64,000 nt of DNA from NCBI GenBank assembly GCA_038063055.1, contig JBBTVY010000005.1, positions 2,444-66,443 of the forward strand. Reading direction: 5' to 3'. The DNA comes from Patescibacteria group bacterium. GTDB lineage: Bacteria; Patescibacteriota; Minisyncoccia; UBA6257; 2-01-FULL-56-20. How positions within the stretch are numbered: the first letter of the stretch is position 1; each line of letters opens with the position of its first letter. The position numbers were made by a program, and so were the translations under genes. This document shows, piece by piece, positions 3,384 through 38,061 of the stretch. The notes beneath the pieces were generated by a model that did not search any database, was not told the origin of the DNA, and saw nothing but the letters and a program-made list of their open reading frames with translations.

Positions 3384-3458
3384 TTTTATTACCTGTCCAC
3401 AGAATATCTCTCCGACGGCGGTCGGCGGTGATACCGCGCCGCTCTGCGGCGCGGTTAT

Positions 3459-5579
3459 TCATTTTTCCGCGGATTCGGCTGTCTCCCAAATTTCTTTGTT
3501 CACATATTGACTTACAGTTTCAAGGTCATTGAGTAATTTCTCCTCGCGCATCTTTTCCTCCACGGAAAGTTCATTTTTGAGTTTGGCGCGGCGCATTAGG
3601 TCAAGTTCCAATTCTATATCCTTTCGCAGAACGGCGAAACCCCTCTTTATCGAATCCTCGGCGTCCTTGATTGCTTGTTTTAGGCGCTGGTTTTTGAGAC
3701 GGACATGGTAACCATGATAAAGCACGAATGCCAACAACCCCACGAAAGCAAGCGCGAAGATAATGAGTAAAAACAGGTAGAAATCCTCATAACTTAAGCG
3801 GGCGCCGCCTATCTGGATAGCTGTTTTGGCAACCAGGAGGTCGAATTTAGGGCTTGGGGGACTCACATCATTGGCAACTTTAAGCTGTGTCCAAGCAATG
3901 TAGCGGCTGGCTTCCAAAAATCGCGGGAAAGAGTAGAACCAAGCGCCGTTTTCATCGGTAACCGCCACCCGATTTTCCGTGGCTCCGGTGTCAATGTTTT
4001 GCAGATAGATTAAAACCTGGGCTTGGGGCACTCCGGCATTGCCGCCGATATAGAGAATTTCATCATTGGAAATTGACTTTGGGAAAAGAGTTACCACCGG
4101 AGGGTCCAGACGAACGTTGCTTAGAGAATCCTCGGCGGCTTGGGCGTGAAGGGTAAGAATACCGAAATTCACGACAAACATCAGATAAATAAGCATTAAA
4201 CCCTTATCCACGCCCCCTTCGCCGAAGCCAGGGCGAGGAGGCGAGCCGTAATCTTTTTGTTTTTCTTTGAGTTCGGCCAGCTTCCCGGAGATATTGGGAT
4301 GTTTCAAAATGTCCTTGACAAGGTATTTATCGATTTGCAGATGTCGTTTCCAGATCCATATCATTAAATAAACCATTAATCCTAAAAGAGCCAGGGCTAA
4401 AATCAAAACGTATGGCCACCCGAAGGTAACCCCGCCGACACTCAATCCCCCCGAATAGATAACTCCCAAGAAAGGCGCGGTTATTGTAAGTTTGCTCTCT
4501 GCTTGAAAGTAGTTGCCCGCCTGGTCGTAGGCGCGGACGACAATGTCGTATTTGCCTTGGTCTAAAACCCTTGAATATGGCGAATAAGCTTCGATAAAGA
4601 ACGGCGTGGTATTTTGGGCAACCAGGGCTTCCGGCAAATCCAAAGATATAATCTTCAGTTCATAGTGGTTTATCCCGGACACAACATCGGTTGTGACAAA
4701 ATCTATAATCGGGCGGTTGTTGGAAGTAATATGGCCTGGTGAAAAATTAAGTTTGAAAGCGGCAGGCGGCGTGTTATCAACTCGAATCACGTAATCGGTA
4801 ATGCCGCCCCAAGCGCCTTGCCGCAGACTTTTAATGTGGAAATAATAAACGCCGTCGGCAAGATTATTATAAACAACGCGATTTCGCGCTTCCTCCGATA
4901 TGTCATCGGGTTCGCCCCCTGGTTCCTGGTCCAGGACATAGCTGTATCCCTGTATATCGGGCGGCGCCGTCCATTCCAGCGTCACAGTTTTTGTGTTGTA
5001 CCACTTCTCCTGGTCAATGTTAGTGCGGGAAGTGACAGTCGGCCCCTGCGGCGGCGGCAGGGTGAGATAGTAAATCCCGTTCGTAGTTTGGCCCAACGTG
5101 TCAGTTCCGCGGCCGTCATTCAGAAGCACTTTCGAATCATCCAAGATTTTCAAAACGGCAGTACCGGTGCTTTTTACGCGAAAAGTAACGGTGGAAAGCA
5201 AACCGGCGTCGGTGTTGATGCCGGGAGTCGGAATAGTTCCCTGGAACTTAAGCGTGCCGTCGGTATTGGAATAGCTTGGTTGAACGACCCAAATCTGGAT
5301 TAAAGATTTTCCCGTTGTCGGTGAAACCACCTGAAGTTTATCCGCCGGAAAACTTAGGTCCGCCTCAATCGCGTTTATTGCCTGACCGCCGGTATTGACA
5401 TAGATTGAGACCGTAAAAGTGCCGCCTAAGGTAAAAGTTCCCGATGGCGGGGCCACGTAAAGAGAGGCGGCCGCCTCGGCGGAAACTCCGGAGAAAAACA
5501 TAAAAAACGCGGCAAGCAAAATAGCGGTCTTTGCCGCTATCTCGTGGATTTTCGCCAAGTAATTCATGCGTTCAAACAA
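3459..5579 (-). CDS. Membrane-anchored surface protein with N-terminal cohesin-like domain, Ig/FN3-like region, two TM helices and a cytoplasmic coiled-coil tail
   Basis: Signal/TM at N-terminus. Cohesin-like pattern 'LYVAPPSGTFTLGGTFTVSIYVNTGGQAINAIEADLSFPADKLQVVSP...GTDGTLKFQGTIP'. Hydrophobic helices 'YVLILALALLGLMVYLMIWIW' and 'LFLLIIFALAFVGLLAFVLY'. K/E-rich C-terminus. Confidence 0.6.
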   Translation of the reverse strand: MFERMNYLAKIHEIAAKTAILLAAFFMFFSGVSAEAAASLYVAPPSGTFTLGGTFTVSIYVNTGGQAINAIEADLSFPADKLQVVSPTTGKSLIQIWVVQPSYSNTDGTLKFQGTIPTPGINTDAGLLSTVTFRVKSTGTAVLKILDDSKVLLNDGRGTDTLGQTTNGIYYLTLPPPQGPTVTSRTNIDQEKWYNTKTVTLEWTAPPDIQGYSYVLDQEPGGEPDDISEEARNRVVYNNLADGVYYFHIKSLRQGAWGGITDYVIRVDNTPPAAFKLNFSPGHITSNNRPIIDFVTTDVVSGINHYELKIISLDLPEALVAQNTTPFFIEAYSPYSRVLDQGKYDIVVRAYDQAGNYFQAESKLTITAPFLGVIYSGGLSVGGVTFGWPYVLILALALLGLMVYLMIWIWKRHLQIDKYLVKDILKHPNISGKLAELKEKQKDYGSPPRPGFGEGGVDKGLMLIYLMFVVNFGILTLHAQAAEDSLSNVRLDPPVVTLFPKSISNDEILYIGGNAGVPQAQVLIYLQNIDTGATENRVAVTDENGAWFYSFPRFLEASRYIAWTQLKVANDVSPPSPKFDLLVAKTAIQIGGARLSYEDFYLFLLIIFALAFVGLLAFVLYHGYHVRLKNQRLKQAIKDAEDSIKRGFAVLRKDIELELDLMRRAKLKNELSVEEKMREEKLLNDLETVSQYVNKEIWETAESAEK

Positions 5580-6507
5580 GGCGTTTCTTTAAAAATATTA
5601 GTACTATCAACGACAATATTATTATAATCCAAATCAAATTCTGTTTATACCAAGGCTGTGGATACCGGGGCGGCAAAACCGATATTCTTGAATTTCCCGA
5701 TTTATCCACTGCTTTAACAGTTATATCTTTATCAAGCGATTGGTATTTCAAAAGATAGGGGCTTTCGGCGACAATAAAATGGTCGGCTCCTTCTTTTACC
5801 TCATAATGGTCTATGCCGCTTCCTTTGTCTTGGGCGTTGAACGCCAAAAACCATTTCCCATCAAGAACAGATTGGTCGTTGCTTACAATCGGGGAAAACG
5901 GGTCGGGCGGAATCGTATCGGCAGGCAAGAGAAGATTGTCTGCTACGGGTGCCTCGGATATCATAAAACTAAGTGCGGAAACTTTAGTTTTTGCGGCAGT
6001 TCCGAGTCCGTCGTTTAGAAACGCTTTCACGTCTTTCATCGAAATCAGTCCGTCCGTGACCCTATCCCCTTTTACAACGAAAGAAAATAGAAATCCTTTT
6101 ATGCCATTATATCCTCCAGGTATTATGCCGGAAAAGAAAATTTCTCCGTCGCCGGAAAGATGCGGCTTTTCCACCCACAAATTGACTATGGAATTGCCGT
6201 CGTGTATTTCCTTTAAATCGAGAATGTCGTGCGGGAACACAACTTTTCCCTGAACCGCATTTATTCTCTCATAATCGGAATTGAGGAAAACGGATACTTC
6301 GAAAAGCTGTCCCACTGCTGCGGTATTGGCCAGCGATGAAAATTCAAAAGTGGCGGCCCGGGCTGTTGATAATGTGCCAGCCGCGATAGACAAAGCAAGC
6401 AAAAAAGCAACAGCAATACGCAATGTCTGTGAATTTGAAATTTTGAATCTGGAATTTGGCATAAATGATTTATAATTAGAATTCTCTAGTTTTTTTAATA
6501 AAAGCAT
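5572..6507 (-). CDS. Cohesin-like domain protein with C-terminal TM anchor, paralogue of the adjacent gene
   Basis: Signal peptide. 'ATFEFSSLANTAAVGQLFEVSVFLNSDYERINAVQGKVVFPHDILDL' parallels the N-terminus of 3459..5579. C-terminal 'LIWIIIILSLIVLIFL'. 8-nt overlap with the downstream gene. Confidence 0.55.
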   Translation of the reverse strand: MLLLKKLENSNYKSFMPNSRFKISNSQTLRIAVAFLLALSIAAGTLSTARAATFEFSSLANTAAVGQLFEVSVFLNSDYERINAVQGKVVFPHDILDLKEIHDGNSIVNLWVEKPHLSGDGEIFFSGIIPGGYNGIKGFLFSFVVKGDRVTDGLISMKDVKAFLNDGLGTAAKTKVSALSFMISEAPVADNLLLPADTIPPDPFSPIVSNDQSVLDGKWFLAFNAQDKGSGIDHYEVKEGADHFIVAESPYLLKYQSLDKDITVKAVDKSGNSRISVLPPRYPQPWYKQNLIWIIIILSLIVLIFLKKRLV

Positions 6508-6853
6508 TTAGCAACTTATGAACGACAATTGACTGCTTCGAGAGATTGTCAAAATCTTCAGAATTAATATATTTAATGTCCCGCGCTATCAAAATTTGAT
6601 TTTGTAATTCTGTCAACGAGCCATGAGATATTGAATAGAATTGGATTTTCTCTTTCGCAGAATGTCTGGAAAACCCTTCGGCAATATTGGAAGTTATAGA
6701 AACCGCTGCGCGCCTAAGCTGTGAAATCAACCCAAAAGTTTCTTCTCTTGGAAAAGATTTAGTTAAACCATAAATCATTAAAACTAGTTTATGGGATTCT
6801 CTCCATACCTCTAAATCGGTAAATGATTTTATTTTGCTAATGCTATATTCCAT
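6476..6853 (-). CDS. Four-helix-bundle protein (23S rRNA intervening-sequence protein / Avd-like family)
   Basis: 125 aa. Motif 'EVWRESHKLVLMIYGLTKSFPREETFGLISQLRRAAVSITSNIAEGFSRHS' typical of TIGR02436/PF05635. Confidence 0.7.
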   Translation of the reverse strand: MEYSISKIKSFTDLEVWRESHKLVLMIYGLTKSFPREETFGLISQLRRAAVSITSNIAEGFSRHSAKEKIQFYSISHGSLTELQNQILIARDIKYINSEDFDNLSKQSIVVHKLLNAFIKKTREF

Positions 6854-6882: not shown

Positions 6883-7986
6883 CTAACCTGTCCAGTAGAA
6901 CGCGAGTACGCTGAAATCGTCCAAATTAATCTTATTGTCGACTTTTAAGTCCAGACTGGATGGCGGATCCGAACGATTATACCAGTAGGCCAGTATCGAA
7001 AAATCGACAATGTTGATTTTGCAATCACCGTTCAGGTCCCTGAACAAGCTGGAACAGGAAACCTGCTGTTTGGCGGTCACATTTTTGGTTCCGACAATAA
7101 AGTTAACAATATTTCCGTAACCGCTGGCTTCAAGATTTCCTATGGAAGCTTTTGATTTCGCCGAGTACGAGCCATAATCGAGAACGGTCGTGTCGAAATT
7201 ATATAAATAAACTCCGTTCTTGTCCGAAATTGTCTTGCCAAAAAAATTTGGACTGGAAGATATCGTTATGACAATATCGGATTGCGGCGAACTTTGGCCG
7301 AAAATAATTATATCGTCCCCTCTTTTCACTTCCTCTTTGTCGACCTTGATTGTGGGCGCTATAAAAATACCGGTAACGTTCATGGTTATCCCATAAATCA
7401 CGCTGACCGGAAAAGCAAGGAGGCTGGAACGGACGTCGTTTTTGTCTTCGCCATAAAAAGAAAAAATATAATTTCCCGCGGAAATATTAGATAAGGTTAT
7501 CTGAAACAAAGCGTCGCTTCCGGCGATTGTCGTCGCCGCAACCTGAGCGTCTTTAAGAAGAGTCACTTCGCTTGAAGGATAGGCTCTTCCTGAAAAAACA
7601 ACTTGCGTCGGTGAGATAAAATATCCTCCCCCGCCACCAACGCCGACAACTCCACCACCGCCTCCGCCGCCAACGGTGCACGCGGAGGTGTCGAATGTGC
7701 AATCGACTTTACATCCTAAAATTCCTCCGCTAAATCCCTGACTGACGCAAGATTGTCCGCCAAGCGCGGCATCATCGCATTGCTCGCCTGCATCCAATAT
7801 CGCGTTTCCACACACTGAAGGAATCGAAGCGCTGATGTTTACGGAAGCCGCGAAAACAACTTGGTTATAATTTAGAAAATAGTCCGCCAAAGGCGTATCC
7901 GCTTCCGACGGAAAAACCAAAAATAAAATCGAGGCGAAAAATATTATCAGGGAAATCAATAAAAACCTGGAATAATTATTTGTCAT
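6883..7986 (-). CDS. Secreted/membrane-anchored Cys- and Gly-rich protein with C-terminal type-I dockerin module
   Basis: N-terminal TM. Cys-rich block 'CGNAILDAGEQCDD'; poly-Gly tract. Two dockerin Ca-binding repeats 'DLNGDCKINIVDFSILAYWY' and 'DLKVDNKINLDDFSVLAFYW'. Confidence 0.6.
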   Translation of the reverse strand: MTNNYSRFLLISLIIFFASILFLVFPSEADTPLADYFLNYNQVVFAASVNISASIPSVCGNAILDAGEQCDDAALGGQSCVSQGFSGGILGCKVDCTFDTSACTVGGGGGGGVVGVGGGGGYFISPTQVVFSGRAYPSSEVTLLKDAQVAATTIAGSDALFQITLSNISAGNYIFSFYGEDKNDVRSSLLAFPVSVIYGITMNVTGIFIAPTIKVDKEEVKRGDDIIIFGQSSPQSDIVITISSSPNFFGKTISDKNGVYLYNFDTTVLDYGSYSAKSKASIGNLEASGYGNIVNFIVGTKNVTAKQQVSCSSLFRDLNGDCKINIVDFSILAYWYNRSDPPSSLDLKVDNKINLDDFSVLAFYWTG

Positions 7987-8120: not shown

Positions 8121-9092
8121 CTACTCCTTGTTTTCTATTTTCATATATCTCTCAATAACTCGCTGGTTATATTTTTTTACACCCCTCGTGGCTATCCAGA
8201 ATATCAAAAGCAACAGAAGCACGATGGGGACGATAATCTGCCAGGTCACCACGAAAAAACCGATTTCACCGTTAACCTGTTTATTCATGTTCCCGCCGTA
8301 ATTCAAAGACAAAACAGCCCTGTAAAAGCCGAATCCGAAGCCGCCCCATCCCGCTGATTCCGGAGTCGCTCTTATTTCTTTTTGGGAACGCGGGAGTATT
8401 TCCGCCCCATATCTGTTCACCGAAAGAATGGCGCTGGTTATTCCGAATACGTTTTTTATTACTATCTTTCCGCTCGGTTTAAGGTACACGTTGCCCGTGT
8501 TTTTAAAAACTATGTTGAAATTATCGGGTATTCGACTGAAAAGCCTGCTCCCGTCGGCGGTGTCGAATTTGTCTATCAGCGCGGTTTCCTGAATCTGGCC
8601 CGAAACATTCAGATAAACCAATATGCCCGCCCTGGTGACTATCGACGTGCCTCCGCCGCTGTTGTCGGGGGGTGAAGTTCCCCACCAGATGACCGCGAAA
8701 TGCCCGCCCGGCGGGGCGTCTTCGGGTATCTTTAAAATGTACGGCACGTCTTTGGATTCCCCGGTTTTTAGCGGCACGCCGTTTTCAATTTTAAACCAGG
8801 AACTCAAATCGGTGCGCTCGCCGGCCAAAAATTGTTTCTCGCCGTTCGTTTCCGTAAATTTTTCAAAAGAAGGATAAAGGGTCTGCTTTTCTCCTCCTTC
8901 GTTCATTAAAAAAAGTTTTCCTTCGATAACGCTCCCGGGGTCAAGACTGAATTCCATTTTAGCCGGGCCGACTGTCAGCGCCCTGGAAACATTCGGCAAA
9001 AAACCGGCGAACGCCAACAATGTCACGAAAATCGCCGAAAGAAACTTATTCTTCATTATGAAAAGAATACCACCCGCGAAGAGATTTTTCAA
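8121..9092 (-). CDS. Surface protein with signal peptide, Ig-like/PapD-like extracellular region and C-terminal TM anchor. Candidate assembly chaperone (DUF916-like)
   Basis: Signal 'FLSAIFVTLLAFAGFL'; beta-rich 'MEFSLDPGSVIEGKLFLMNEGGEKQTL'; C-terminal 'IIVPIVLLLLLIFWIA' followed by a basic tail. Confidence 0.45.
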   Translation of the reverse strand: MKNLFAGGILFIMKNKFLSAIFVTLLAFAGFLPNVSRALTVGPAKMEFSLDPGSVIEGKLFLMNEGGEKQTLYPSFEKFTETNGEKQFLAGERTDLSSWFKIENGVPLKTGESKDVPYILKIPEDAPPGGHFAVIWWGTSPPDNSGGGTSIVTRAGILVYLNVSGQIQETALIDKFDTADGSRLFSRIPDNFNIVFKNTGNVYLKPSGKIVIKNVFGITSAILSVNRYGAEILPRSQKEIRATPESAGWGGFGFGFYRAVLSLNYGGNMNKQVNGEIGFFVVTWQIIVPIVLLLLLIFWIATRGVKKYNQRVIERYMKIENKE

Positions 9093-9110
9093 CCGAACGA
9101 TTGAACTGGT

Positions 9111-9776
9111 TCAGTTAGCAAGGCAACTATAGGTGATAGTATCGACATACGTTGCGCCTGGAGTGGAAGAGGCAATGGCCGCGCCGTGAGTCACAATTAT
9201 TTCCCTGGCGCTTGTTGTGGCGCTCGTTGAGGCAAGAATTTGCGTGGTCGTAGTTAATCCTCCGAATATTAAAGTAGTTGTCGCGTAATTGTATCTTGGT
9301 CCCATTGAAAATTGTGCTCCCGCTCCGATGGTCGTTGTAGCCGACTGTACGCCGTATCCTTCCGTTCCTGCAGCGAGCGTTGCCGAAGCGTTAAAGGCCG
9401 CGTTAGGAGATTCGATAAGACTGTTACTGCTTGAAGAGTACAGTCCTCCGCCGGTCGTGCTGCTTCCGGTGTCGTTGATGCTCAAAGTGCAGCCGAGAGA
9501 ACTATTGGAGCAAGCCATCGTGCTGGAAACCTGTGGAGTTGAAGTCGAAATGCCGGTCAGGGTCCCGAACAAGGTGGTTGTCGTGCTGACGCTGCAGCTT
9601 ATGCTTACCGCCACCGAGGCGTTGACGTTCACGGCGGAAGAAGTGGCGGCGGTCGCGAATTCCGGCGAAATTGCCTGCCTGAGGAGGTCGCCGAACCAGC
9701 TTAAAACAACAAAAGCAAAAACCAAACCGATAGCCGACCAAAAACCGATGTTTTCTTTATTATTAAAACTCGTCAT
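9111..9776 (-). CDS. SCPU (spore coat protein U / Csu-type pilin) domain protein with N-terminal TM/signal
   Basis: 'ISCSVSTTTTLFG' (C..s....FG) and C-terminal 'GATYVDTITYSCLAN' (G.Y.DT.T motif). T/S/A-rich beta-protein. Confidence 0.55.
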   Translation of the reverse strand: MTSFNNKENIGFWSAIGLVFAFVVLSWFGDLLRQAISPEFATAATSSAVNVNASVAVSISCSVSTTTTLFGTLTGISTSTPQVSSTMACSNSSLGCTLSINDTGSSTTGGGLYSSSSNSLIESPNAAFNASATLAAGTEGYGVQSATTTIGAGAQFSMGPRYNYATTTLIFGGLTTTTQILASTSATTSAREIIVTHGAAIASSTPGATYVDTITYSCLAN

Positions 9777-9914
9777 TTGATTGAATTGATTTAATCAATG
9801 ATAATATGATGCTTTTCGACTTGGGTAGATTATAACATATGAGGTTTTAAGAAGATGTGGATAACTCCAACAGGGTAATAGGGTTTTAGGGGTTAGGGTA
9901 TAGAGTATGCGGAT

Positions 9915-10274
9915 TTAGCGTTTATTTTTTAGTTTTTTAATTAAAACAAACAACATTTTTTGAATCTCTGTAAGTAAATTTCCGGCTTTTAAAACATCAA
10001 CTTCGGGGTAAATGCTTTTGATGAGAATAATTTGTGTTTCTAATTCTGCGGCCGAAGCATCTGCAACACTCAAAAATTGTAAATATTCTCCTAACCCATG
10101 CCTTTTATAGCCTTCCGCAATATTTGATGGTACAGAAACAGCCGATCGTCTTATTTGACTAACCAATCCATAAATTTCACTTTTGGGAAGTTTATTGCTT
10201 AAATCGTAAACCTCTTTTACTAATAAAATAGATTTCTTCCAAACTTCTAATTCTTTATAAGATTTTAAATACAT
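9915..10274 (-). CDS. Four-helix-bundle protein (23S rRNA IVS protein / Avd-like), second copy
   Basis: 'ELEVWKKSILLVKEVYDLSNKLPKSEIYGLVSQIRRSAVSVPSNIAEGYKRHG' matches the PF05635/TIGR02436 pattern. Confidence 0.7.
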   Translation of the reverse strand: MYLKSYKELEVWKKSILLVKEVYDLSNKLPKSEIYGLVSQIRRSAVSVPSNIAEGYKRHGLGEYLQFLSVADASAAELETQIILIKSIYPEVDVLKAGNLLTEIQKMLFVLIKKLKNKR

Positions 10275-10324
10275 TTGTATTATACCCCCTACCCTTTTAC
10301 CCTACTACCCTATAACCCTATACC

Positions 10325-13114
10325 CTAGTTACTAACACAGCTAAACGTAATCGTGTCCGCATAGACCCCGCCGGTTGCGCTTGCTCCTACTGTGGCTTTG
10401 TGGGTAACCACTACTTCCCTGTTGGTTACGGCGGCAGTTGAAGAAGCGAGAATCACCGTAGTCGTGGCAAGGCCTCCCACCGTGTTGCCGCTTTGGAGAT
10501 AGCGGATATTCAGAGTAAGCGTTCCTCCGCTCCCGGCTGTTGTCGTGGCTCCCTGAATTCCGTAACCGTCGGTATTCGCGGCAAGGGTCGCGGTGGCGTT
10601 AAAAGCGGCATCCGGCGATTTGATTAAGTAGTTGATTGTCGTGGACGCGTACAATCCCCCGCCGGTGGTACTGCTGCCGTTATCGTTGACATAAAGAACA
10701 CAGCCAAGCGCTCCGTCGCAAGACATGGAAGTCGATGCGTTGGGAGAAGAAGTGAAGATGCCAGTCGTGTCTATCGTGCCGAAATCCGTGCTCGAAGCGC
10801 TGGCGGAACAGGAAACGGTTGCAGTCGGAGTGAAAGATGCGACTGCGTAAACGGAATAAGTCGTTAAACCCGTTCCGGCGTCGCTTACTCTGAAATAATA
10901 AGTCGCCGAAGAGGCGTTGGAAGTGGACATAATTGAATATTCAACTTCGGTAAATCGGATTCCGCTCAGAAGTTCGGAGTTCGCCTGATTTCTGCTTGTG
11001 GTCGCCACAACTTCGGCGGCGTTGAAAATTATGTTTTCGTCGGTCGTTCCTCCGGTGGAAGTGGCGATGTTCGTGGTTGCCGTGCCATCGGCAACCAAAC
11101 TCGACGTGGACATTTGCCACTCTCTCGTGCCTGCGGTCGAAGTCGCCAGTTGCGTCCACGTTCCGGAAGTAGAGTTGGCCTGATATTCTATTCTGAATTG
11201 GGCCGAACTGGTGGCATCGCCCTCGTTTGAAATTTCAAAACGCAGGCGCTTGACGGTTCCGATTCCTTGTATCGACAACGAAGTGTCTTCGCTGGCCGCC
11301 GCCGTCGAGGTCGCTTCACTGCCGTCGTCGTTGCGCCAATGGTAGTGGATTTGGGTCATGTTGGCGGCAAGGATGCTGGTTTGGCCGTATATGTTATAGC
11401 TGGCGTCGTTAATGCAGCTGCTTGTGCACCGGACTGAATTGACAACACTAGCCGAGAAGCCGGCCGACGAAGTGGCTGAAAAGGACTCGCCATAAGTATT
11501 TTCTAAGGTATTCGGGAAGCTGTAACTCGTGGTCGCGTTGTTTATACCCAATTCGAGAAATTGGGCCGCGACACCGTTGCCGGAGCTGCTGTCGTCGTAT
11601 TCGCCGTCAAGCCAGGCCCATTTGGCCGTGGTTGATGAGTCGGCGAGGGTTGTATTTATGCTTGTCGTTGCAAAACTGGTTCCGACCGACATATTCGATT
11701 GCGCCAAAAAAGAAAGATAATTGTTAAGGTTGGCGTTCGCCACCGGAGAGTTCGTATGGTCATAGCTCCAAAAAAGTTTCATGCCGCGTATGCTTGTGGC
11801 GCCAGAAGTGCTGAACGCCGAACAAACTATTTTGTCGCCGCCCGTTGTGGTCGCCAAATTGGCGGCAACGTTCCAAACAGGAGTTGCGTAACCGGTGGTG
11901 TCGTTGGCGGGCGGCGTTTCGGTTATGGCGGTTGTCGTCAGGTTTGTGCAGGGCGTGCCAGGGCCGAGAGTCGCGTTCATACCCGGATTCGCGGTTGCGG
12001 TGAAATTTGTCCTGCCTAAAAGAAACGCGTTAGTTGATGAAGGAGAGGTTTCTGGAATATTTATCGTGGTAGTCGCCAGCAGCGTAGCCGTACTCGCGGT
12101 GTTGGTATTTTGCATTAGCCAAACCTGGATGTTTTTGCGGAGTTTCGAACTTGCGTTGAAATTGAAAGTGTATGTGGCGACTGCGACTGCGTTGGGGTTG
12201 CTTAAAGAATTACTACTTATACTTTGCATTTTAAAAGTGTGATTGCCGGAAGGAGAAGCATCAGCGGTTGTCGGACTATTCAACATTAAAACGCTGTAAG
12301 AATCCCCTAATTGCGCGAAAGTAGCGGCGCTTGTCGCCTCCGAATCCCATCCTACGCCGACCGTTATCGCCGTCGTAGTCGAAATCCTCGCCCTGAATTC
12401 GGCCCAAAATTGGTTCGAGGAACTCGCGCCAACGGAAAAAGTCGTTGTGGCGCCGCTTTCCGGCAAACCGAAATTGAAATTCGCCGAAGTTACCAGCGCC
12501 TTGCCCATCTGCGAGCTGGTGGCGAACACGAATCTATAGTCGGTGTTTACCTGCGTGGGGGCAAACGGGTCATAGTCATAAGTAATAATAAGTTTTGCGC
12601 TTTCCGCGGACCGCGTGGGACCGGTAATTTTCGTGGTAAATATCATCGCGTAAGTTCCGCTGGCGTTGCCGATTAACGTTTGCATGGCGCTTGTCGCGTC
12701 AAGCCGAAAAGCAATCCATCTGTTCTCGGCGCTGTCGGTCAAAGTGCTCGGACAAGTCAAACTCTGGGCGATTCCGCCCTGAACGTTCAAAGTAAATGTA
12801 CAGGCCGAAATGCTTGCGGTGCTTGGGTGCGTATTATAAGAAATATACGCCGAACGGATTGGCTGGGAGGTGGGAACCATATCCGGAAGCGCGATGACAA
12901 ACGCGTAAGTCGACGTTACTCCGTTTGCGATGGGGGTCGTGGAAATAATCGAACCGATAAAAAACTCGATTGTCTTGGTTTTTGCGGCGGCTTCGGCGAC
13001 TTGAACCTGAAGAGTTAGGTCGCGCGATTTGAAACTCGATAAAAAATCAACCGGCGCGGGAATGGCGATAGTGGAAATCAAAAGCGCTACCAGAAATTTT
13101 CTTTTGGTATTCAT
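10325..13114 (-). CDS. Giant (929 aa) secreted T/S/A-rich adhesin-like protein ending in an SCPU/Csu-pilin-like domain
   Basis: Signal peptide 'LVALLISTIAIPAP'. C-terminus 'VSCSASASSTDFGTIDTTG...GGVYADTITFSCVSN' is paralogous to the C-terminus of 9111..9776. Confidence 0.6.
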   Translation of the reverse strand: MNTKRKFLVALLISTIAIPAPVDFLSSFKSRDLTLQVQVAEAAAKTKTIEFFIGSIISTTPIANGVTSTYAFVIALPDMVPTSQPIRSAYISYNTHPSTASISACTFTLNVQGGIAQSLTCPSTLTDSAENRWIAFRLDATSAMQTLIGNASGTYAMIFTTKITGPTRSAESAKLIITYDYDPFAPTQVNTDYRFVFATSSQMGKALVTSANFNFGLPESGATTTFSVGASSSNQFWAEFRARISTTTAITVGVGWDSEATSAATFAQLGDSYSVLMLNSPTTADASPSGNHTFKMQSISSNSLSNPNAVAVATYTFNFNASSKLRKNIQVWLMQNTNTASTATLLATTTINIPETSPSSTNAFLLGRTNFTATANPGMNATLGPGTPCTNLTTTAITETPPANDTTGYATPVWNVAANLATTTGGDKIVCSAFSTSGATSIRGMKLFWSYDHTNSPVANANLNNYLSFLAQSNMSVGTSFATTSINTTLADSSTTAKWAWLDGEYDDSSSGNGVAAQFLELGINNATTSYSFPNTLENTYGESFSATSSAGFSASVVNSVRCTSSCINDASYNIYGQTSILAANMTQIHYHWRNDDGSEATSTAAASEDTSLSIQGIGTVKRLRFEISNEGDATSSAQFRIEYQANSTSGTWTQLATSTAGTREWQMSTSSLVADGTATTNIATSTGGTTDENIIFNAAEVVATTSRNQANSELLSGIRFTEVEYSIMSTSNASSATYYFRVSDAGTGLTTYSVYAVASFTPTATVSCSASASSTDFGTIDTTGIFTSSPNASTSMSCDGALGCVLYVNDNGSSTTGGGLYASTTINYLIKSPDAAFNATATLAANTDGYGIQGATTTAGSGGTLTLNIRYLQSGNTVGGLATTTVILASSTAAVTNREVVVTHKATVGASATGGVYADTITFSCVSN

Positions 13115-13236
13115 CCCGTTAGAGACAGGCCGCCTTTAGACGGCCGTAAACCAGCGGCTATAACCGCAGCATACTTTTTTGATTTGCTACAAGAATATTT
13201 CATAAATTGTCATTGCTTAGTTGTCTCTAACGGGAT
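13113..13236 (-). promoter_or_regulatory. 15-bp perfect inverted repeat with a ~94-nt loop; the 3' arm covers the RBS region and AU of the start codon of 10325..13114. Contains a mini-uORF (MNPVRDN*)
   Basis: Arms 'atcccgttagagaca' at 13113..13127 and 'tgtctctaacgggat' at 13222..13236. Confidence 0.5.
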
Positions 13237-13310
13237 TCATCACAAACAATTCGGTCATATAATTTCCCCTTGTCGGCAATTCTATTTTTTATCTGCAAAT
13301 ACGTAGAGGT

Positions 13311-13649
13311 TCATTTCTTTTTCGCCGCCGCAAGCGCGAACCAGTCGAAATATGGCATAAGTCCGTTAAGCGTGCTTCCATAGAGCTTGCCGCCATAAAC
13401 CGCGTCCCCGAAAACTTCTCTGGCTCTGGCGATTTCCCGAAGCCGCCCTTTCCATCGAGGGTCATCGAGAGTCAAATCAAAAAGTTCAAAAGCGCGCTCC
13501 GCCGCCATTTGGAAATTTTCTTCGTTTTTGCCTTGCGCCGCGGCGGCGGCGCGAAAAACTTCACTACCGATATTGCCCATTTGTTCGGCCAAAGAAAGTT
13601 TCTGCCATTTCCCCGCGGCAAGTCCGCTATGAATAAATTTTTCGTTCAT
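13311..13649 (-). CDS. Hypothetical all-alpha protein, weakly MazG/HisE-like NTP pyrophosphatase
   Basis: 112 aa; weak match to the NTP-PPase helical pattern; 4-nt overlap with the upstream gene. Confidence 0.35.
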   Translation of the reverse strand: MNEKFIHSGLAAGKWQKLSLAEQMGNIGSEVFRAAAAAQGKNEENFQMAAERAFELFDLTLDDPRWKGRLREIARAREVFGDAVYGGKLYGSTLNGLMPYFDWFALAAAKKK

Positions 13650-14032
13650 TGTTTTATCAATTTTTTTACAACTTGTCTTATTTTTTCTTTCACAGCATCG
13701 CTTTCAACGTTCCGCGACCTGTTTCCGAAAGCGGGCTTCAAATTAATCATTGAATCAAATTCAATCCGTTCATCTTCCCTGCCTTCGCCAAGGCTTCGGA
13801 GGGCAGGCGGTTTTTTGGGATAGATATTTATTCCCCAAGTATTTTCCCGTTTCGAATTTTCTTGTTCCATAAGAATCGCTTCTTCGTCTGCGTGCAATTC
13901 GCCGCCAATGGCCATAATTTCTTGAGCTATATCCACCGCCGCTTTTACAAGGTCTCCAAATCCCTCGTTCGCCATCCGGAGAAGCTCTGAAATTTCAATC
14001 GGTTTTTCTGTTTTTATTATTCTGATATCCAT
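13646..14032 (-). CDS. Hypothetical conserved protein (DUF5674-like)
   Basis: 128 aa; 'IMAIGGELHADEEAILMEQENSKRENTWGINIYP...RIEFDSMINLKPAFGNRSR' resembles a conserved uncharacterised CPR/archaeal family. Confidence 0.4.
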   Translation of the reverse strand: MDIRIIKTEKPIEISELLRMANEGFGDLVKAAVDIAQEIMAIGGELHADEEAILMEQENSKRENTWGINIYPKKPPALRSLGEGREDERIEFDSMINLKPAFGNRSRNVESDAVKEKIRQVVKKLIKQ

Positions 14033-14044
14033 AATTTTGGTCTA

Positions 14045-15727
14045 TCACGGCCAATCGAACATCTGCGCCGGTATAAGATGCCGTGTCTGCGAATCGTAAT
14101 AAGCGGCGTCTACGGCGTATTTTCCAGGTATCATTTCAGATGTTTTTATCCCGTAATCAGGATTCGCGTCTGGAGCCACAATATCGAATTCCGCCTGCTT
14201 GGTAATCGGGTCGAAATCTTTCGCATAGAGCTGGGCAGAATCAAGAAATGACTTGTCTTGTACTCCGCCAAAGGAAAAGCCATTATCGGTGCCGTTTCTA
14301 TATAACTCGATATCGGCCGGGTAAAGGAAGACATTCAACGATTGTCCATAGAAATCACCGAGATACTGGATTTTAACGTGGACTGTGTCCGCTGTTTTCG
14401 TTATGGAAACGATTGTCGGCGGCGGAACGAACGGCGCGGGAACCGGCGGCGGGATTTCCATTGTCACATTCGGACTTACTTGTATTATCCGCGGCTGTTC
14501 CAGCTCGATATTTGCGGTGTTCGCGAAAGCCGGTGGCACGTCGTAATTGACCTTAAGAAGCATTCCGTCGAGGTATATAACCGGAACAGGGTTAAGGGAA
14601 GTCAGTATTATTTTTGCCTGGATTTGGAGCGTTTTCAACTCGTCCCATTTTGAAACCGGAATTGTCAGTTTAAGGTCGCGCCAGTTCTGCGGGCTAACTT
14701 TTTGAAGCTCAACCCAGTTCTGACCGTCCGTGCTGTAATTTATTTGAATAAAGTTTTCGTCCGGAATCGGAGCTTGAATTGGTATCGCGATGTCCGATTG
14801 CCCGCCCTGCTTGTCCCGAGTTATATCGAGGGGAGCCGCGTCGAAGGGCTCGCCCGAAGAAGATGATTTGGTTGAACTACCTGTTTCCGGAGAATTTTCC
14901 TGCGAAAATATGTTCAGTATGTTCGCGGATTCAAGAGAATCATTTTTTGCGTTTGGAGCTTGGCTCGGCGCGTCTGTTGTTGTAGCATCCGTTGTGTTTT
15001 CACTACTCGCAGAAACGGGTTGTTGCGTAGCCGTGTTGTCTTGCGGTGTTTGCCCGCCGGAAGTCGTTGAAGAAACTTCCTGCGCGAAGGCCTTGTTCAA
15101 AAATTTTGAAAATATATTAAAGAGAAAAGAAGTCGTAGAAGAAGAATTTTCGGGCGTCGAGGTTGGCGTTGTTTCCGGGACGACTGAATCGGAAGAACTT
15201 GGCGATGGCGCCGGCGGAGTTTCTCCGGACGAAATTATTTCTGTTTCGGATTGAACGTTCGTCTGAACGCTCTCCCCTATTTGCCAAACAAGCGACAACG
15301 CGACATTTTTGACATCTCCCTTAACCTCAAAATCGGAAGGAATAAAACTGCCGCAGAAGATAATTTTATCTCCCTCTGAATCAGATTGTCTGTAAACGGC
15401 GGAGTTCGATTCGTTAAACGAAGGGCTGACATTATCAATGGTTTCCGGAAGGCCTTGCGCGCCTGACGGATTTTGCCAGGTTCCAAGGCACGTTGCCGGA
15501 TAGAAATCCGCCAGTTCAGCTTTGGTAAGCACGTTGCGTATCATGAAAGTTCCGCCGATTACGATGGCCACAACCACGAGCAGAAACACGGGGCGATACT
15601 TTTCATAAAAAGAAGGTTTTAAGTTTACCGTAAAATCGTGAAATCGCCGGAAAATACCCCTTGATTTCGGCGCGGGATGGATATCCGAAAAACTGCGAGT
15701 CTGCTTCGCTTTTCCTGAAGCTTTCAT
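14045..15727 (-). CDS. Membrane-anchored protein with long S/T/P-rich low-complexity linker and C-terminal globular domain
   Basis: TM 'VFLLVVVAIVIGGTFMI'; about 150 aa of S/T/P/E-rich sequence. Confidence 0.5.
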   Translation of the reverse strand: MKASGKAKQTRSFSDIHPAPKSRGIFRRFHDFTVNLKPSFYEKYRPVFLLVVVAIVIGGTFMIRNVLTKAELADFYPATCLGTWQNPSGAQGLPETIDNVSPSFNESNSAVYRQSDSEGDKIIFCGSFIPSDFEVKGDVKNVALSLVWQIGESVQTNVQSETEIISSGETPPAPSPSSSDSVVPETTPTSTPENSSSTTSFLFNIFSKFLNKAFAQEVSSTTSGGQTPQDNTATQQPVSASSENTTDATTTDAPSQAPNAKNDSLESANILNIFSQENSPETGSSTKSSSSGEPFDAAPLDITRDKQGGQSDIAIPIQAPIPDENFIQINYSTDGQNWVELQKVSPQNWRDLKLTIPVSKWDELKTLQIQAKIILTSLNPVPVIYLDGMLLKVNYDVPPAFANTANIELEQPRIIQVSPNVTMEIPPPVPAPFVPPPTIVSITKTADTVHVKIQYLGDFYGQSLNVFLYPADIELYRNGTDNGFSFGGVQDKSFLDSAQLYAKDFDPITKQAEFDIVAPDANPDYGIKTSEMIPGKYAVDAAYYDSQTRHLIPAQMFDWP

Positions 15728-16417: not shown

Positions 16418-19213
16418 TTATCGAATTCCTAATAACGGCCCAAAGGCACTTAACACTTGGGCGAAAAATCCCTGATTAACCGGTTCAATCATTGAACCCG
16501 GGCCGAACTGCTGGCATGCCGGATCCTGATAATTTTGCATGCAGTAGGCCTGGCATTCTTCGGGAGTTTTGCAGCCGCCTGGTCCAGTAAAATCAGCGCC
16601 ACCATCTCCCGATGTCGGCGTTTGCGATTGATATGCAGTACAACGAGAGTCACCTATATTGGCCTTACAAAATTCTTCCCATGAAGAGTATCCCTGCGGA
16701 ATCGCCGACTGGTCCCCGCCTTGTTGCTGTTGTACCCCACTATCTCCGCCCTTGGGCTGGCAGGACTGAAATTTAGCTTGAACAGACGGGTCGGGTGTTC
16801 CCTGCTGTTGTTCTCCGTCGCCACCGCCACCGCCTAAAGAATTAAGGCAGGCCTGAAATTCACCGCATGATTTAGTAAGACACGCGTTAACTTTTTCTTT
16901 TTGGCAGGCCTGGACTTTCGCATTAACTTTTGGATCGGGCGTACCTTGCGCTTGTGGCTGGCCGCTCGGCGCTTGATCGCCACCTTGCTGGAGAGACTTC
17001 ATGCAGGCGTCAAATTCCGAGCAAGAAAACGCAAGGCAAATATCTATCTTCTCCCGAAGACAGGATAACGCTCTTGCCTGTACTTTTTTCCCGCTTTCGT
17101 CCTGTGGTCCTTCTTGTCCGGATGATTGCTGATTGCCCTTAGGCAAAGCGTCAAAACACGAGTTGAACTCGGCACAGGTGGCTTTACTTAAACAGACCTC
17201 AATTTCTTTACGGATATCCTGACCCATCAAGCTCTCGCATTTTCTCTGTGCTGTTTCTAAGGCGGGTGACTTTGCTTCTGATTGTGTTATTTTTCCGGCC
17301 TTGAATCGTCCAAAAAAAGAGGGACCCAATTCTTTCTCCATGCAGGCAAGCCACTCTGGAGGAGCTTTATCAAGTGATGTCATAAACTTACGCTGTTCTT
17401 CAATGTTTTTAAGATCTTCTTCGCTGAGCATGCCGTGGTCCTTAGCCCAGTTAAAGCAGGTGTCCTGGTTAATGACACAGAATGCCTCACAGTCGGCTTT
17501 GCTCTTGCAACCGCCGGGGCCCGAGGTGATTTTAAATTTTTTGGCCATTTCCGCTTCTTCTTTTGAGATAAAGCCGGCGCGCACCGCAAAATCCACACAC
17601 TCATCAATGTGCGCTTCACTTTTGCAGTAACTGTCACACGCCTCTCGCGACCTGCAATTCCCCGGACCCTTACCGCCGGTTTTCTTCACGATATCGGCTT
17701 CCTCTCTTGTCATAAAACCAACTTTCACTGCAAAATCAATGCACTCATTAGTGTGAGTGTCGCTCGCGCAATAGGCATCGCATGATTCTTTTGTCGTGCA
17801 TCCGCCGGGCAACTTTCCGCCGCTCTTAAGATACGGGAGTATTTTATTGACCGCCTCGGCGTCTTCTTTTGGTATAAATCCGGCTTTCTGGGCAAATTCC
17901 ATGCACACAACCGCATTAGCCGAGTTTTCACAATACTTCAAACAACTTTCTTTGGTTTTGCAGTTTCCCGGAAACGCCACGCCCGCCTTTTTAACATCGG
18001 TTATCTTGCGTATTTCTTTTAATTCGTCGGCACTGGCCAATTTAAACTTTTCCACAAAATTGACGCATTCCTCCAGGTGGTCAATGTCTTCGCAGTATGT
18101 TCGGCAGGCAACCTCATCTTTGCACTGGCCGGGACTTTCTCCTTTTTCCATTGCCGCAAAAACACCTTTTTTCTCCTCAGGCACTTCTATCGTTAATCCG
18201 ACTTTTTTGGCAAATGTGACACATTTTGAGTAATTGCTTGATACACTGCAGTAGGTTTTGCAATCTTCTTGGCTACCACAACTCCCCAACTCTACTACCG
18301 GGTATGCAATGGCCACTGGTTCAGGTATTAACATTCCCCGTGGTTCAGATGTCTGTGGTTCAGACCCTAGATACGACTGACACCTGCTATCGTTGCCCAC
18401 ATTGAATGTGGACACAATTTCTGATTGACTCAACGTCCTGTTGTATACGGAAACCCCACCGATCACGCCGAAGAAAGGTTCGGCAGCGCCACCCCGGTCC
18501 CATGCCCCGAGCGTGAATGGCGCCTCGCTTGTGGTGTTGGCGCCCGGAGCTTCGGCGGTTCCTTTCAGCTTGCCATCTACATATAATTTCATGGTACCGG
18601 AGCCGTCTCTCGTAGCAACGACATGGTACCAAGTATCCGTGTTAATAGTCGTAGTGATTTTACCTCGGGATTCGCCAGAGATACCGGCGGATTCTCCTGC
18701 AAAAAACTCCAACATTCGATCATCCCCGCCCGCTTTCAGCCAATATCCATACCCGGGACCTCTCACTGGATAATTTGACTTTCTGATGATGTTACCTGCG
18801 GGTATTCCACTGCCGCGGAGCCCCAAACGAAACCAAACTTCCAATGAAAACGGGCCTGTTCCAAAATTTAAACTCTTGGAATTTTCCATCCTGATATATC
18901 CGCTGGATCCATCAGGATGAAAATTATTCCCATTTTCCCAAGAACGAATAGTGACTCCGCCATGGATCGTTCCATTATTTCTCGCCTTCATATCCGCGAC
19001 GGTTTTCATCTCCGAGGCGGTTTTCCCCGTAACCGTATCTCCATTCCACCGACTAACCAAACCAGAAGGGGGTTCTGGGCAAATCTTTCCAGATAGTGAG
19101 GTCTGTCCAATTCCTTCTCCTTCGTTTTGAGCAAAAACGATATAAGTGCTGACTAAAAACAACAAGACTATTATTGATGGGAATATAAAAGTTTTCTTCG
19201 GAGAGATTGGCAT
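16418..19213 (-). CDS. Large secreted protein: N-terminal signal, LamG/concanavalin-like domain, about 8 tandem Cys-containing ~45-aa repeats, C-terminal Cys-rich Q/G-rich region
   Basis: 'MPISPKKTFIFPSIIVLLFLVSTYIVFA' signal (internal start preferred over the listed 19429 start). 'WYHVVATRDGSGTMKLYVDGKL' LamG hallmark. Repeats of 'C..YC......C..FA.K.G....E'. Confidence 0.6.
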   Translation of the reverse strand: MPISPKKTFIFPSIIVLLFLVSTYIVFAQNEGEGIGQTSLSGKICPEPPSGLVSRWNGDTVTGKTASEMKTVADMKARNNGTIHGGVTIRSWENGNNFHPDGSSGYIRMENSKSLNFGTGPFSLEVWFRLGLRGSGIPAGNIIRKSNYPVRGPGYGYWLKAGGDDRMLEFFAGESAGISGESRGKITTTINTDTWYHVVATRDGSGTMKLYVDGKLKGTAEAPGANTTSEAPFTLGAWDRGGAAEPFFGVIGGVSVYNRTLSQSEIVSTFNVGNDSRCQSYLGSEPQTSEPRGMLIPEPVAIAYPVVELGSCGSQEDCKTYCSVSSNYSKCVTFAKKVGLTIEVPEEKKGVFAAMEKGESPGQCKDEVACRTYCEDIDHLEECVNFVEKFKLASADELKEIRKITDVKKAGVAFPGNCKTKESCLKYCENSANAVVCMEFAQKAGFIPKEDAEAVNKILPYLKSGGKLPGGCTTKESCDAYCASDTHTNECIDFAVKVGFMTREEADIVKKTGGKGPGNCRSREACDSYCKSEAHIDECVDFAVRAGFISKEEAEMAKKFKITSGPGGCKSKADCEAFCVINQDTCFNWAKDHGMLSEEDLKNIEEQRKFMTSLDKAPPEWLACMEKELGPSFFGRFKAGKITQSEAKSPALETAQRKCESLMGQDIRKEIEVCLSKATCAEFNSCFDALPKGNQQSSGQEGPQDESGKKVQARALSCLREKIDICLAFSCSEFDACMKSLQQGGDQAPSGQPQAQGTPDPKVNAKVQACQKEKVNACLTKSCGEFQACLNSLGGGGGDGEQQQGTPDPSVQAKFQSCQPKGGDSGVQQQQGGDQSAIPQGYSSWEEFCKANIGDSRCTAYQSQTPTSGDGGADFTGPGGCKTPEECQAYCMQNYQDPACQQFGPGSMIEPVNQGFFAQVLSAFGPLLGIR

Positions 19214-19214
19214 A

Positions 19215-19454
19215 TTATTCAAAAGGGTTTTTATAAATTGTATCAAAGGGATTTTTTTGTTCTTTGAAGGGATTAGTATCCGGCACCTGACCCTGAAGTT
19301 GGTTTTGTGTCTTGTCAAAAATTTCGCTCCCCAGCGAAGGAACTCCTTCCGAAGACGGGGCTTGCTTACTCTTTGACCAATACCAAAAACCGACCCCGCC
19401 GACCGCGAGAACCAATACAGCGACAACAATAGAGATGAGTTTCTTATTACCCAC
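19215..19454 (-). CDS. Small single-TM membrane protein
   Basis: 'LISIVVAVLVLAVGGVGFWYW' TM; abuts the start of the large protein. Confidence 0.4.
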   Translation of the reverse strand: MGNKKLISIVVAVLVLAVGGVGFWYWSKSKQAPSSEGVPSLGSEIFDKTQNQLQGQVPDTNPFKEQKNPFDTIYKNPFE

Positions 19455-37994: not shown

Positions 37995-38061
37995 AATAGT
38001 AGCATGGTCAGTTTCATAATATCCTAGAGTGGAAATGGTATCTCGATGAAAATATCGTTTG

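Follow-up and report, generated by a model that had tools for sequence, protein, structure and literature searches.

The stretch of DNA considered here, 64,000 nucleotides of a Patescibacteria group bacterium (GenBank assembly GCA_038063055.1, contig JBBTVY010000005.1, positions 2,444 to 66,443 of the forward strand) and hereafter the window, carries a conserved operon of the Patescibacteria (Paceibacteria/Parcubacteria-type) that encodes seven exported or membrane proteins. A first-pass annotation of the sequence had singled out three of these genes, namely those for a small protein of 221 amino acids, a large secreted protein of 929 amino acids ending in the same pilin-like domain, and a membrane-anchored neighbor proposed to act as a chaperone. 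The three open reading frames (ORFs) are indeed present, that of the neighbor at 8121..9092 of the reverse strand (323 amino acids) and the other two as listed in Table 1. The common domain is also real, with residues 59-221 of the small protein matching residues 767-929 of the large one at 54% identity over 166 amino acids (BLASTP, E 4e-49). Both motifs named for the domain, 'C.vs....FG' and 'G.Y.DTITxSC..N', are found in the small protein as SCSVSTTTTLFG and, at the C-terminus, GATYVDTITYSCLAN, and are near-invariant across 63 homologues (C61, G71, Y210, D212, T213, T215, Y216, C218 and N221). Moreover, the genome belongs to the candidate phyla radiation (CPR), as had been supposed, because identical proteins are labelled Patescibacteria and the nearest relatives of the proteins are from Candidatus Liptonbacteria.

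Scans of the three single sequences against Pfam and NCBIfam returned no family at E<=1. Searches among proteins nevertheless found 71 relatives with the small protein as query and at least 233 with the chaperone-like protein. A profile of the pilin-like domain (A1) matched 906 representative clusters at E<=1e-3 in a search of 1.84 billion proteins, and in all 150 matches listed the domain lies at the extreme C-terminus of proteins ranging from about 130 amino acids (short and probably partial) to 3576 amino acids. In addition, the order of large gene, small gene and gene for a membrane-anchored protein, for which a survey of other genomes had been proposed, recurs in 23 other loci. Because of the number of clusters, the C-terminal position of the matches and the recurrence of the gene order, both the paralogy and the conservation of the module are far beyond chance.

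The survey consisted of a scan with the A1 motif of one genome per species, which gave 31 loci, and then of hidden Markov model (HMM) searches of six-frame ORFs with clustering. These loci are labelled as Patescibacteria-type or unclassified 'bacterium' metagenome-assembled genomes (MAGs), except for one labelled Gammaproteobacteria. As far as each contig reaches, the genes of the window and of L001-L019 follow one another on one strand in a fixed order: F560, large, small and chaperone-like proteins, the dockerin protein DOC367 (about 350 amino acids in the family), and proteins of about 300 and about 600-700 amino acids. Four further loci, picked solely because a chaperone-like homologue lay on a long contig, all have the same six downstream genes. 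The module is thus a seven-gene operon that extends beyond the triad first described, with one dockerin protein and two membrane proteins bearing cohesins, an arrangement conserved around the triad in 24 Patescibacteria loci. The F560 family stands upstream of the large gene in nine loci, the window included. The first survey placed DOC367 in 19 loci, immediately following the chaperone-like gene whenever both were called, and it also occurs in L034-L037. The families of the two cohesin proteins, COH311 and COH706, are kept in 17 loci.

The large proteins are the most variable component, with homologues of 400 to 3576 amino acids in which the pilin-like domain is always last. F560, which has no Pfam match, is composed of a conserved Cys-containing module (FYPxSCLGxW...NSAV...IFCG), a low-complexity Ser/Thr/Pro linker and a conserved C-terminal domain.

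Table 1. Coordinates in the window of the operon genes, their candidate functional segments and the genes inserted among them (TM, transmembrane; Ig, immunoglobulin; minus sign, reverse strand)
Feature	Coordinates	Strand	Description
F560	14045..15727	-	First gene of operon; N-terminally TM-anchored (TM-like segment 43-70); alignment A7
Large 929-residue secreted protein	10325..13114	-	Variable Ser/Thr/Ala-rich N-terminal region and C-terminal pilin-like domain; candidate tip adhesin (acceptor only)
C-terminal pilin-like domain of large protein, residues 748-929	10325..10873	-	hmmsearch with A1, E 6e-62
119-residue four-helix-bundle gene	9915..10274	-	'23S rRNA intervening sequence protein' (PF05635); Pfam 1.6e-31
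Small 221-residue subunit	9111..9776	-	Signal peptide or anchor, AxA site, N-terminal extension, Csu/SCPU-like pilin domain with four Cys
Candidate donor strand (N-terminal extension), residues 44-58, AATSSAVNVNASVAVS	9603..9647	-	Between AxA cleavage motif and first Cys
Two-Ig-domain WxLIP-like/PapD-like protein	8121..9056	-	Signal peptide and C-terminal TM anchor; candidate membrane-tethered chaperone
Conserved hairpin of chaperone-like protein, residues 117-151	8604..8708	-	GGHFAVIWWGT, Gly-rich loop, SIVTRAGILVYLNV; candidate complementing strand
C-terminal TM helix of chaperone-like protein	8172..8243	-	Helix 272-310 in model; TM-like segment 263-295
DOC367, secreted	6883..7986	-	N-terminal donor-like motif, Cys-rich module, Gly-rich linker, Big_6 Ig domain(s), C-terminal dockerin; candidate donor-only base subunit
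N-terminal motif of DOC367, residues 47-59, ASVNISASIPSVC	7810..7848	-	VxVxAxV pattern as in small subunit
Dockerin-like C-terminal module of DOC367, residues 317-361	6904..7038	-	Dockerin_1 17.1 bits, below 22.9 cut-off
Second four-helix-bundle gene	6476..6853	-	PF05635; Pfam 5.7e-39
COH311	5572..6507	-	Signal peptide, cohesin-like domain, DxxSGIxHYE beta domain, C-terminal TM anchor (TM-like 286-311)
COH706	3459..5579	-	N-terminal cohesin, further extracellular domains, three internal TM-like segments, C-terminal coiled-coil-like tail
GC-rich hairpin (10 bp)	3433..3455	.	Between last operon gene and convergent fmt gene; candidate transcription-unit end

More distant loci (L020-L030) carry one to three pairs of a pilin-domain and a chaperone-like protein. 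In five of them (L023, L024, L026, L027 and L030), up to three diverged pairs are present whose pilin domains have no Cys pairs, and a conserved membrane protein of about 265 amino acids (family f11) is encoded upstream. Two taxonomic labels look wrong. The locus labelled Gammaproteobacteria (L031, CAZGFX010000003.1) encodes its pilin-domain protein among VanW, G5 and PG_binding_4 genes, which are common in monoderms, and the locus of P0150 (L035), a protein labelled Spirochaetota, contains the whole of the Patescibacteria operon.

The original description had also noted that no usher is present, and this held in the survey. No match to the usher family (PF00577) occurs among the scanned neighbors in the window, and no conserved neighborhood family of the surveyed loci was identified as an usher. 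Those window neighbors that do match Pfam have unrelated functions, and several match nothing.

Folds of the small and chaperone-like proteins

The AlphaFold2 (AF2) model of the small subunit, with a predicted local distance difference test (pLDDT) score of 86, comprises a helix (residues 10-36), an unstructured segment (37-57) and a beta domain (58-220). When compared with the PDB by Foldseek, its best match is CsuA/B (E 9e-3, prob 0.99, TM-score 0.51-0.54), and the top 40 matches are chaperone-usher pilins nearly throughout. The predicted fold is therefore of the chaperone-usher pilin type, as anticipated, at a sequence identity to CsuA/B of 15-18%.

The significant match to the SCPU family (PF05229) that had been set as a test was not obtained. 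The window protein gave none at E<=1, and 12 of 63 pilin-like relatives gave sub-threshold matches (best 1.2e-3). No other Pfam family recurred in more than two of these 63 members, and WxL (PF13731) matched none of them at E<=1; the W-x-L motif is likewise missing from both the 221- and the 929-residue protein. Searches of PDB sequences with A1, and with an alignment of the chaperone-like family (A2), returned no relatives. An hhalign comparison of A1 with an alignment of the CsuA/B family (A3), on the other hand, gave a probability of 59% and E 9e-5, while A1 against PapD/FimC gave 0.07% and A2 against CsuA/B gave 2%. Because the controls are so much lower, an SCPU relationship of the pilin-like domain appears plausible but remote. 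In this alignment, the AxA site is paired with the AxA site, 'ATSSAVNVNASVAV' of the small subunit with the CsuA/B donor strand 'AVTGQVDVKLNIST', the next Cys with Cys and FG with FG, and 'MAC' is paired with 'VTC' of CsuA/B, the partner of the classical A-B pilin disulfide. The donor strand of CsuA/B is formed by its first 14 residues, which are re-attached at the C-terminus in the self-complemented construct 6fm5 (checked against the PDB entry).

The chaperone-like protein has two possible starts. Public gene calls and homologues agree with the ATG at 9056, which yields 311 amino acids, and the alternative TTG at 9092 yields the 323 amino acids given above. In the AF2 model of the 311-residue form (pLDDT 91.5), the signal peptide is followed by two beta-sandwich domains and then by a long helix at the C-terminus, and so the combination of signal peptide, Ig-like or PapD-like domains and C-terminal TM anchor ascribed to this neighbor is borne out by sequence and model alike. 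The two Ig-like domains lie in the chaperone arrangement. The best PDB match is EfmWxLIP1, an Enterococcus WxLIP of the architecture DUF916-DUF3324-TM, after which come PapD-like domains and the chaperones of chaperone-usher systems. With its signal peptide, two Ig-like domains and C-terminal TM helix, the protein has the full WxLIP architecture as well as WxLIP as its nearest fold, and its anchoring by that helix sets it apart from the soluble periplasmic chaperones.

PapD_N (PF00345), for which a search had also been proposed, does not match the window protein, is outside the 25 most frequent families of 65 relatives, and is not approached by hhalign, which gave 0.4% for A2 against PapD/FimC. 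As judged from the model, the relation to PapD is visible at the level of the fold only. WxLIP_PGBD (PF06030, formerly DUF916) matches 54 of the 65 relatives (best 7e-6), with none at E<=1 for the window protein, and WxLIP_HBD (DUF3324, PF11797) matches four. The WxLIP structure 9i1y was not retrieved at E<=10 when the PDB was searched with A2. The first proposal, that the module is a usher-independent variant of the SCPU/Csu type, thus stands as regards the pilin fold and the missing usher and falls as regards significant matches to SCPU or PapD_N.

The most conserved segment of the chaperone-like protein is a hairpin that consists of GGHFAVIWW, a variable Gly-rich loop and then SIVTRAGILVYL, in which G117, G118, H119, V122, W125, I139, R142, G144 and L146 are invariant. 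The AF2 model assigns no strand to residues 127-144, and its mean pLDDT in the block 131-140 is 59. A disordered hairpin has also been described in WxLIPs, where AF2 predicts its insertion into the WxL domain (Hassan et al., PMC10599100). In being conserved and, according to the model, partly unstructured, the hairpin of the chaperone-like protein matches the WxLIP hairpin. The N-terminal motif of WxLIPs, NQIDKxxxYFDLK (PMC10599100), is missing, and the sequence that follows the signal peptide has AVTVGPAKLEYxxDPG as its consensus instead. Two basic residues, K33 (near-invariant, in the first strand) and R142 (in the hairpin strand), are at positions comparable to Arg8 and Lys112 of the PapD cleft and are candidates for their equivalents. 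In addition, a KKYNxW(I/V) motif is invariant on the cytoplasmic side of the TM helix (8121-8171 of the reverse strand; Y296 and N297 are invariant in A2), which may point to a conserved partner of this protein inside the cell or in the membrane.

Resemblance to CsuA/B and CsuC in fold, together with the weak SCPU matches, could also mean that the operon is a non-functional remnant of a classical archaic Csu-type system from a diderm, its usher being elsewhere or lost. This is very improbable. The family is large and strongly conserved in Patescibacteria-type MAGs, with the 906 clusters and 35 loci examined, its chaperone-like protein is TM-anchored throughout, and no usher belongs to any conserved neighborhood family. 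The low identity to CsuA/B also argues against such an origin, as does the only Gammaproteobacteria-labelled locus, which lies among genes common in monoderms.

Candidate complementing strands and a model of assembly

Small subunits open right after the signal peptide with xVTV(S/T)A(T/S)Vxx(S/T)(I/V)(S/T)C, which in several homologues is preceded, without a spacer, by a canonical AxA site. In the candidate donor strand of the window protein, V49, V51 and A53 are near-invariant, and residues 44-58 are not modelled as a strand in the monomer. For this protein, a type IV prepilin signal was considered and rejected, as it lacks a G/F-x-x-x-E motif and has a KEN-like n-region. The DOC367 proteins open in a similar way, with SVTVTAxVPxxC, and continue with a Cys-rich module. 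When the regular expression VxVxAxV was scored in the first 90 residues of ORFs, the motif was present in 19/21 small subunits and 18/19 DOC367 proteins, but in none of the large (0/38), chaperone-like (0/36) or cohesin proteins (0/34) and in only 6 of 442 other ORFs. The large proteins have in common with the small subunits just the three or four residues that adjoin the Cys on its N-terminal side, and before these comes a linker, rich in Pro and Ala, from the domain upstream.

In chaperone-usher pili, the tip adhesin only accepts a strand, each subunit both donates and accepts one, and the base subunit donates a strand but cannot be extended. The pattern of the motif matches this logic by analogy, with a base that would be tethered by a TM helix or by dockerin and cohesin. 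Because VxVxAxV is found in the small subunit and in DOC367 and not in the large proteins, its distribution suggests a tip adhesin, followed by one or more subunits, followed by a base that only donates and is docked on cohesin anchors. The three candidates for complementing strands, i.e., the extensions of the small subunit and of DOC367 and the strand of the chaperone-like protein, each have a near-invariant Ala midway along an alternating hydrophobic pattern, and this suggests that the same groove may fit them.

The chaperone-like gene of the distant loci is followed by one that has no relation to DOC367, yet whose product opens with SVNVGAIVPSKAC or SVTVGGY(T/V)PLL. An Ig domain comes next (Big_1 in two members of family f58; the f21 members have no Pfam match), with one or more TM segments at the end. 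Adjoining three of the distant modules, there are short ORFs of 76-93 amino acids on the opposite strand (L022, 7055-7336; L028, 11921-12154; L029, 11483-11713; all on the reverse strand) that contain QTVT(I/V)TA.V and match the pilin profile weakly in its N-terminal part. They may encode mini-proteins that consist of a donor strand alone, or they may be spurious.

The motif might have a more ordinary meaning. If VxVxAxV were a processing or sorting signal, or merely a first beta-strand, the proteins could be independent Ig-like surface proteins that are co-transcribed. Its place directly after the signal peptide would agree with this, as would the similar opening of the chaperone-like protein, (A/L)VTVGPAK, the internal position of the segment in the distant clade and the negative result of a pairing test within genomes. 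Against this, the motif is confined to two of the seven operon families and rare in other ORFs, it aligns with the experimentally defined donor strand of CsuA/B, it forms no strand in the modelled monomer in spite of its near-invariance, and the positional equivalents of DOC367 in distant loci retain it while the rest of the protein differs. This explanation is accordingly rated as improbable.

DOC367 and the two cohesin proteins provide a possible means of attachment to the cell. Although the dockerin of the window protein scores below the cut-off, Dockerin_1 matches all 16 full-length members tested (best 2.4e-9) and Big_6 matches 15 of them, so that the assignment is family-wide. COH706 has a Pfam Cohesin match above the 24.1 cut-off (6.1e-9, 36.6 bits), and COH311 is homologous to its cohesin region (30% identity, E 3e-16). 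The dockerin may bind to these cohesins, and the resulting structure may mediate attachment.

Based on these observations of sequence and predicted structure, donor-strand complementation or exchange on a membrane-anchored chaperone, leading to a stalk or fibre that is assembled without an usher, is on balance the probable mechanism, if only slightly so. All components have signal peptides or anchors and would be exported by the Sec pathway. On the outer face of the cytoplasmic membrane, the WxLIP/PapD-like protein, held by its C-terminal helix, would complete, with its hairpin (..GGHFAVIWW-loop-IVTRAGILVYL..), pilin domains that have just been exported and whose Ig fold is still incomplete. 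The large protein, which has an acceptor pilin domain at its extreme C-terminus and no donor motif, would become the distal adhesin. Beneath it, the small subunit, with both the donor strand ATSSAVNVNASVAV and an acceptor domain, would join by donor-strand exchange, either as one copy or as a polymer. DOC367 would then cap the base, since it has a donor motif and no acceptor domain, and its dockerin would dock on the two membrane cohesin proteins and tether the structure to the cell. Patescibacteria have no outer membrane, and for this reason an usher would not be needed. The more complete picture of a true pilus, i.e., a Csu-like polymer built on a membrane-anchored chaperone, with a hypervariable giant tip adhesin and a donor-only dockerin base on membrane cohesins, is put forward tentatively, as something possible but doubtful.

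Several points weigh against donor-strand assembly. The window proteins have no Pfam match to SCPU, PapD_N, DUF916 or WxL at E<=1, the Foldseek E-values of the small subunit are modest (about 1e-2), and the hhalign alignment of A1 with CsuA/B spans only the N-terminal 80 columns. By the A2 comparison cited above, the chaperone-like family has no detectable sequence homology to PapD/FimC. In both the small subunit and DOC367 of the window, the putative AxA site is 15-20 residues past the hydrophobic core, which is atypical for signal peptidase I. The pairing of small-subunit and DOC367 motifs within genomes was no better than in shuffled sets (p about 0.2; the regular expression mis-picked two sequences). 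In the distant clade (L020-L030), the VxVTAxV segment is internal, after a domain of 150-200 amino acids, and the Cys residues are absent, and this layout fits a simple N-terminal donor strand less well. Moreover, an open groove, the insertion of a strand into it and polymerisation are features that we infer, and the Firmicutes WxL systems are not known to form fibres.

The most serious alternative is a static surface complex of the WxL type without any fibre. Each pilin-domain protein would be bound 1:1 by the WxLIP-like protein, whose hairpin would complete its fold permanently, and the dockerin and cohesin proteins would be a separate or loosely associated surface scaffold. Such a complex of WxL protein and WxLIP has been proposed for the Firmicutes. 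The gene architecture agrees in form with the definition of a WxL cluster (PMC10599100), PF06030 is found in most of the chaperone-like relatives, and the fibre is so far a predicted one. Against this, the pilin-like domain lacks the W-x-L motif, PF13731 matches 0/63 members, and the closest folds are those of chaperone-usher pilins, which polymerise. A static complex also leaves unexplained why VxVxAxV occurs in the small subunits and the dockerin protein and not in the large proteins. It is considered unlikely, yet it deserves real weight beside donor-strand assembly.

If the more complete picture of a true pilus is correct, the operon would encode a host-attachment organelle of episymbiotic ultra-small bacteria. 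Patescibacteria are thought to live attached to host cells, and the attachment machinery known from them consists essentially of type IV pili. The operon, which is widespread and strongly conserved and has a hypervariable tip protein of 400 to more than 3500 amino acids, is a candidate for a second, mechanistically different structure for host or surface recognition, and no description of it was found in the literature searched. The operon also suggests how donor-strand assembly may work without an usher. The model specifies which protein would donate and which would accept a strand, so its predictions are testable with recombinant proteins.

Inserted genes and the surrounding region

The two PF05635 genes in the operon are insertions and lie outside the mechanism; the one between the large and small genes is found at that position in only some related loci. 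Because these genes also gave bAvd-like matches, a diversity-generating retroelement was considered. It was rejected, since the matches to PF05635 are strong (1e-31 to 1e-39) and those to bAvd marginal, and no reverse transcriptase was present among the ORFs scanned. Small genes occupy varying intergenic positions of the operon in the window (9915-10274 and 6476-6853 of the reverse strand) and in L006, L010, L016, L017, L036 and L037. Others of this kind include GIY-YIG (L035, L036) and PDDEXK_3 (L037) genes, as if the operon spacers were landing sites for selfish small genes. Two small overlapping genes between F560 and the large gene, at 13311-13649 and 13646-14032 of the reverse strand, occur in this genome only. 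One encodes a DUF5674 protein of 128 amino acids and the other a protein of 112 amino acids without a match, and the pair is probably also an insertion into the operon.

At the downstream end, the GC-rich hairpin probably marks the end of the transcription unit, albeit on slight evidence. Scans for promoters and terminators gave counts no higher than in shuffled sequence, and this includes the terminators in the 3433..3455 region.

The genome region around the operon is rich in envelope proteins. On the reverse strand, 16418-19429 encodes a secreted protein of 1003 amino acids with Laminin_G_3, about ten Cys-rich repeats (C..eeC..YC......C..F..K.G) and a Gln/Gly-rich low-complexity end. A CAP-domain protein is encoded at 22346-23362, and a protein of 1223 amino acids with lamin-tail, collagen-binding-like, T-Q ester-bond and PG_binding_1 domains at 23434-27105, both on the same strand. 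An S8 subtilase with a fervidolysin-like prodomain is encoded on the forward strand at 19663-20904. Rfam found three tRNAs only in the window. One of them, at 38061-38134 of the reverse strand, is a tRNA-Ile with the anticodon TAT. In most bacteria, AUA is decoded by a CAT tRNA that carries lysidine, and a UAU tRNA-Ile would be uncommon.

Relation to known systems

The closest known gene architecture is that of the WxL clusters of the Firmicutes (Csc; Lactobacillus, Enterococcus, Listeria), because the best fold match of the chaperone-like protein is a WxLIP and there is no usher; the first-pass annotation did not mention these clusters. In both cases, a small protein composed of the domain alone is encoded with a large protein that has the same domain at its C-terminus and a protein with two Ig-like domains and a TM helix (PMC10599100, PMC9772566). 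Both also have a conserved disordered hairpin, predicted in WxLIPs to complete the beta-sandwich of the partner, and both are found in monoderm hosts and lack an usher. A WxL cluster is defined by at least one WxLIP and at least two proteins sharing a C-terminal domain within four genes, and the operon conforms to this definition only formally, since its common domain is not WxL. According to the Pfam scan and the motif check, that domain has neither the dual W-x-L nor the PF13731 signal and is Csu/SCPU-like instead. The operon further differs in its additional dockerin protein and two cohesin membrane proteins, in the lack of an LPxTG protein, and in its host, which belongs to the Patescibacteria and not to the Firmicutes.

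With the archaic (sigma) chaperone-usher pili, namely Csu of Acinetobacter baumannii (CsuA/B, CsuC, CsuD, CsuE) and CupE of Pseudomonas, which have the SCPU domain, the operon has the pilin fold in common. The resemblance extends to the alternating small hydrophobic residues at the N-terminus followed by a Cys, the FG, the second Cys consistent with an A-B disulfide and the C-terminal G.Y.DT.T. A tip adhesin, in the operon a candidate one, with a C-terminal pilin domain but no donor strand and a chaperone-like partner with two Ig domains are likewise common to both. In contrast, the operon has no usher and its host no outer membrane, the chaperone-like protein is anchored in the membrane, the pilin-like domain is about 165 amino acids long with long inserts, and anchoring is apparently by dockerin and cohesin or by a TM protein.

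Among fibres of other kinds, the TLP-1a/b fibrils (Tsinghua Lotus Pond, CryoSeek, PDB 9ikk) have an identity of only 13%, and no PDB chain was found by A1 at E<=10. Their nearest predicted model is from a Flavobacteriales MAG, and in these tubular helices the donor strand comes from protomer n+4. TasA fibres of Bacillus subtilis and the archaeal bundling pili or threads, of which 8aur and 7ueg appear among the fold matches, are usher-free fibres formed by donor-strand exchange in organisms that have no outer membrane. They show that the principle is workable in such envelopes. The pairing of a secreted protein bearing a C-terminal dockerin with neighboring genes for cell-bound cohesin proteins recalls the anchoring of cellulosomes. 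Unlike in the cellulosome, the cargo is not an enzyme, the cohesins are held by TM helices and not by SLH domains or sortase, the pairing is a predicted one, and the dockerin of the window protein is below the Pfam cut-off.

In conclusion, the module lacks the features that define these systems, namely the WxL motif, SCPU matches above threshold, an usher and a soluble PapD-type chaperone, yet it combines their working parts with cohesin and dockerin. It thereby links the chaperone-usher pili of Gram-negative bacteria and the WxL clusters of Gram-positive bacteria, which have hitherto been studied apart. If the more complete pilus model is correct, the Firmicutes WxL clusters and the chaperone-usher pili of diderms would be two branches of one ancient strand-complementation system.

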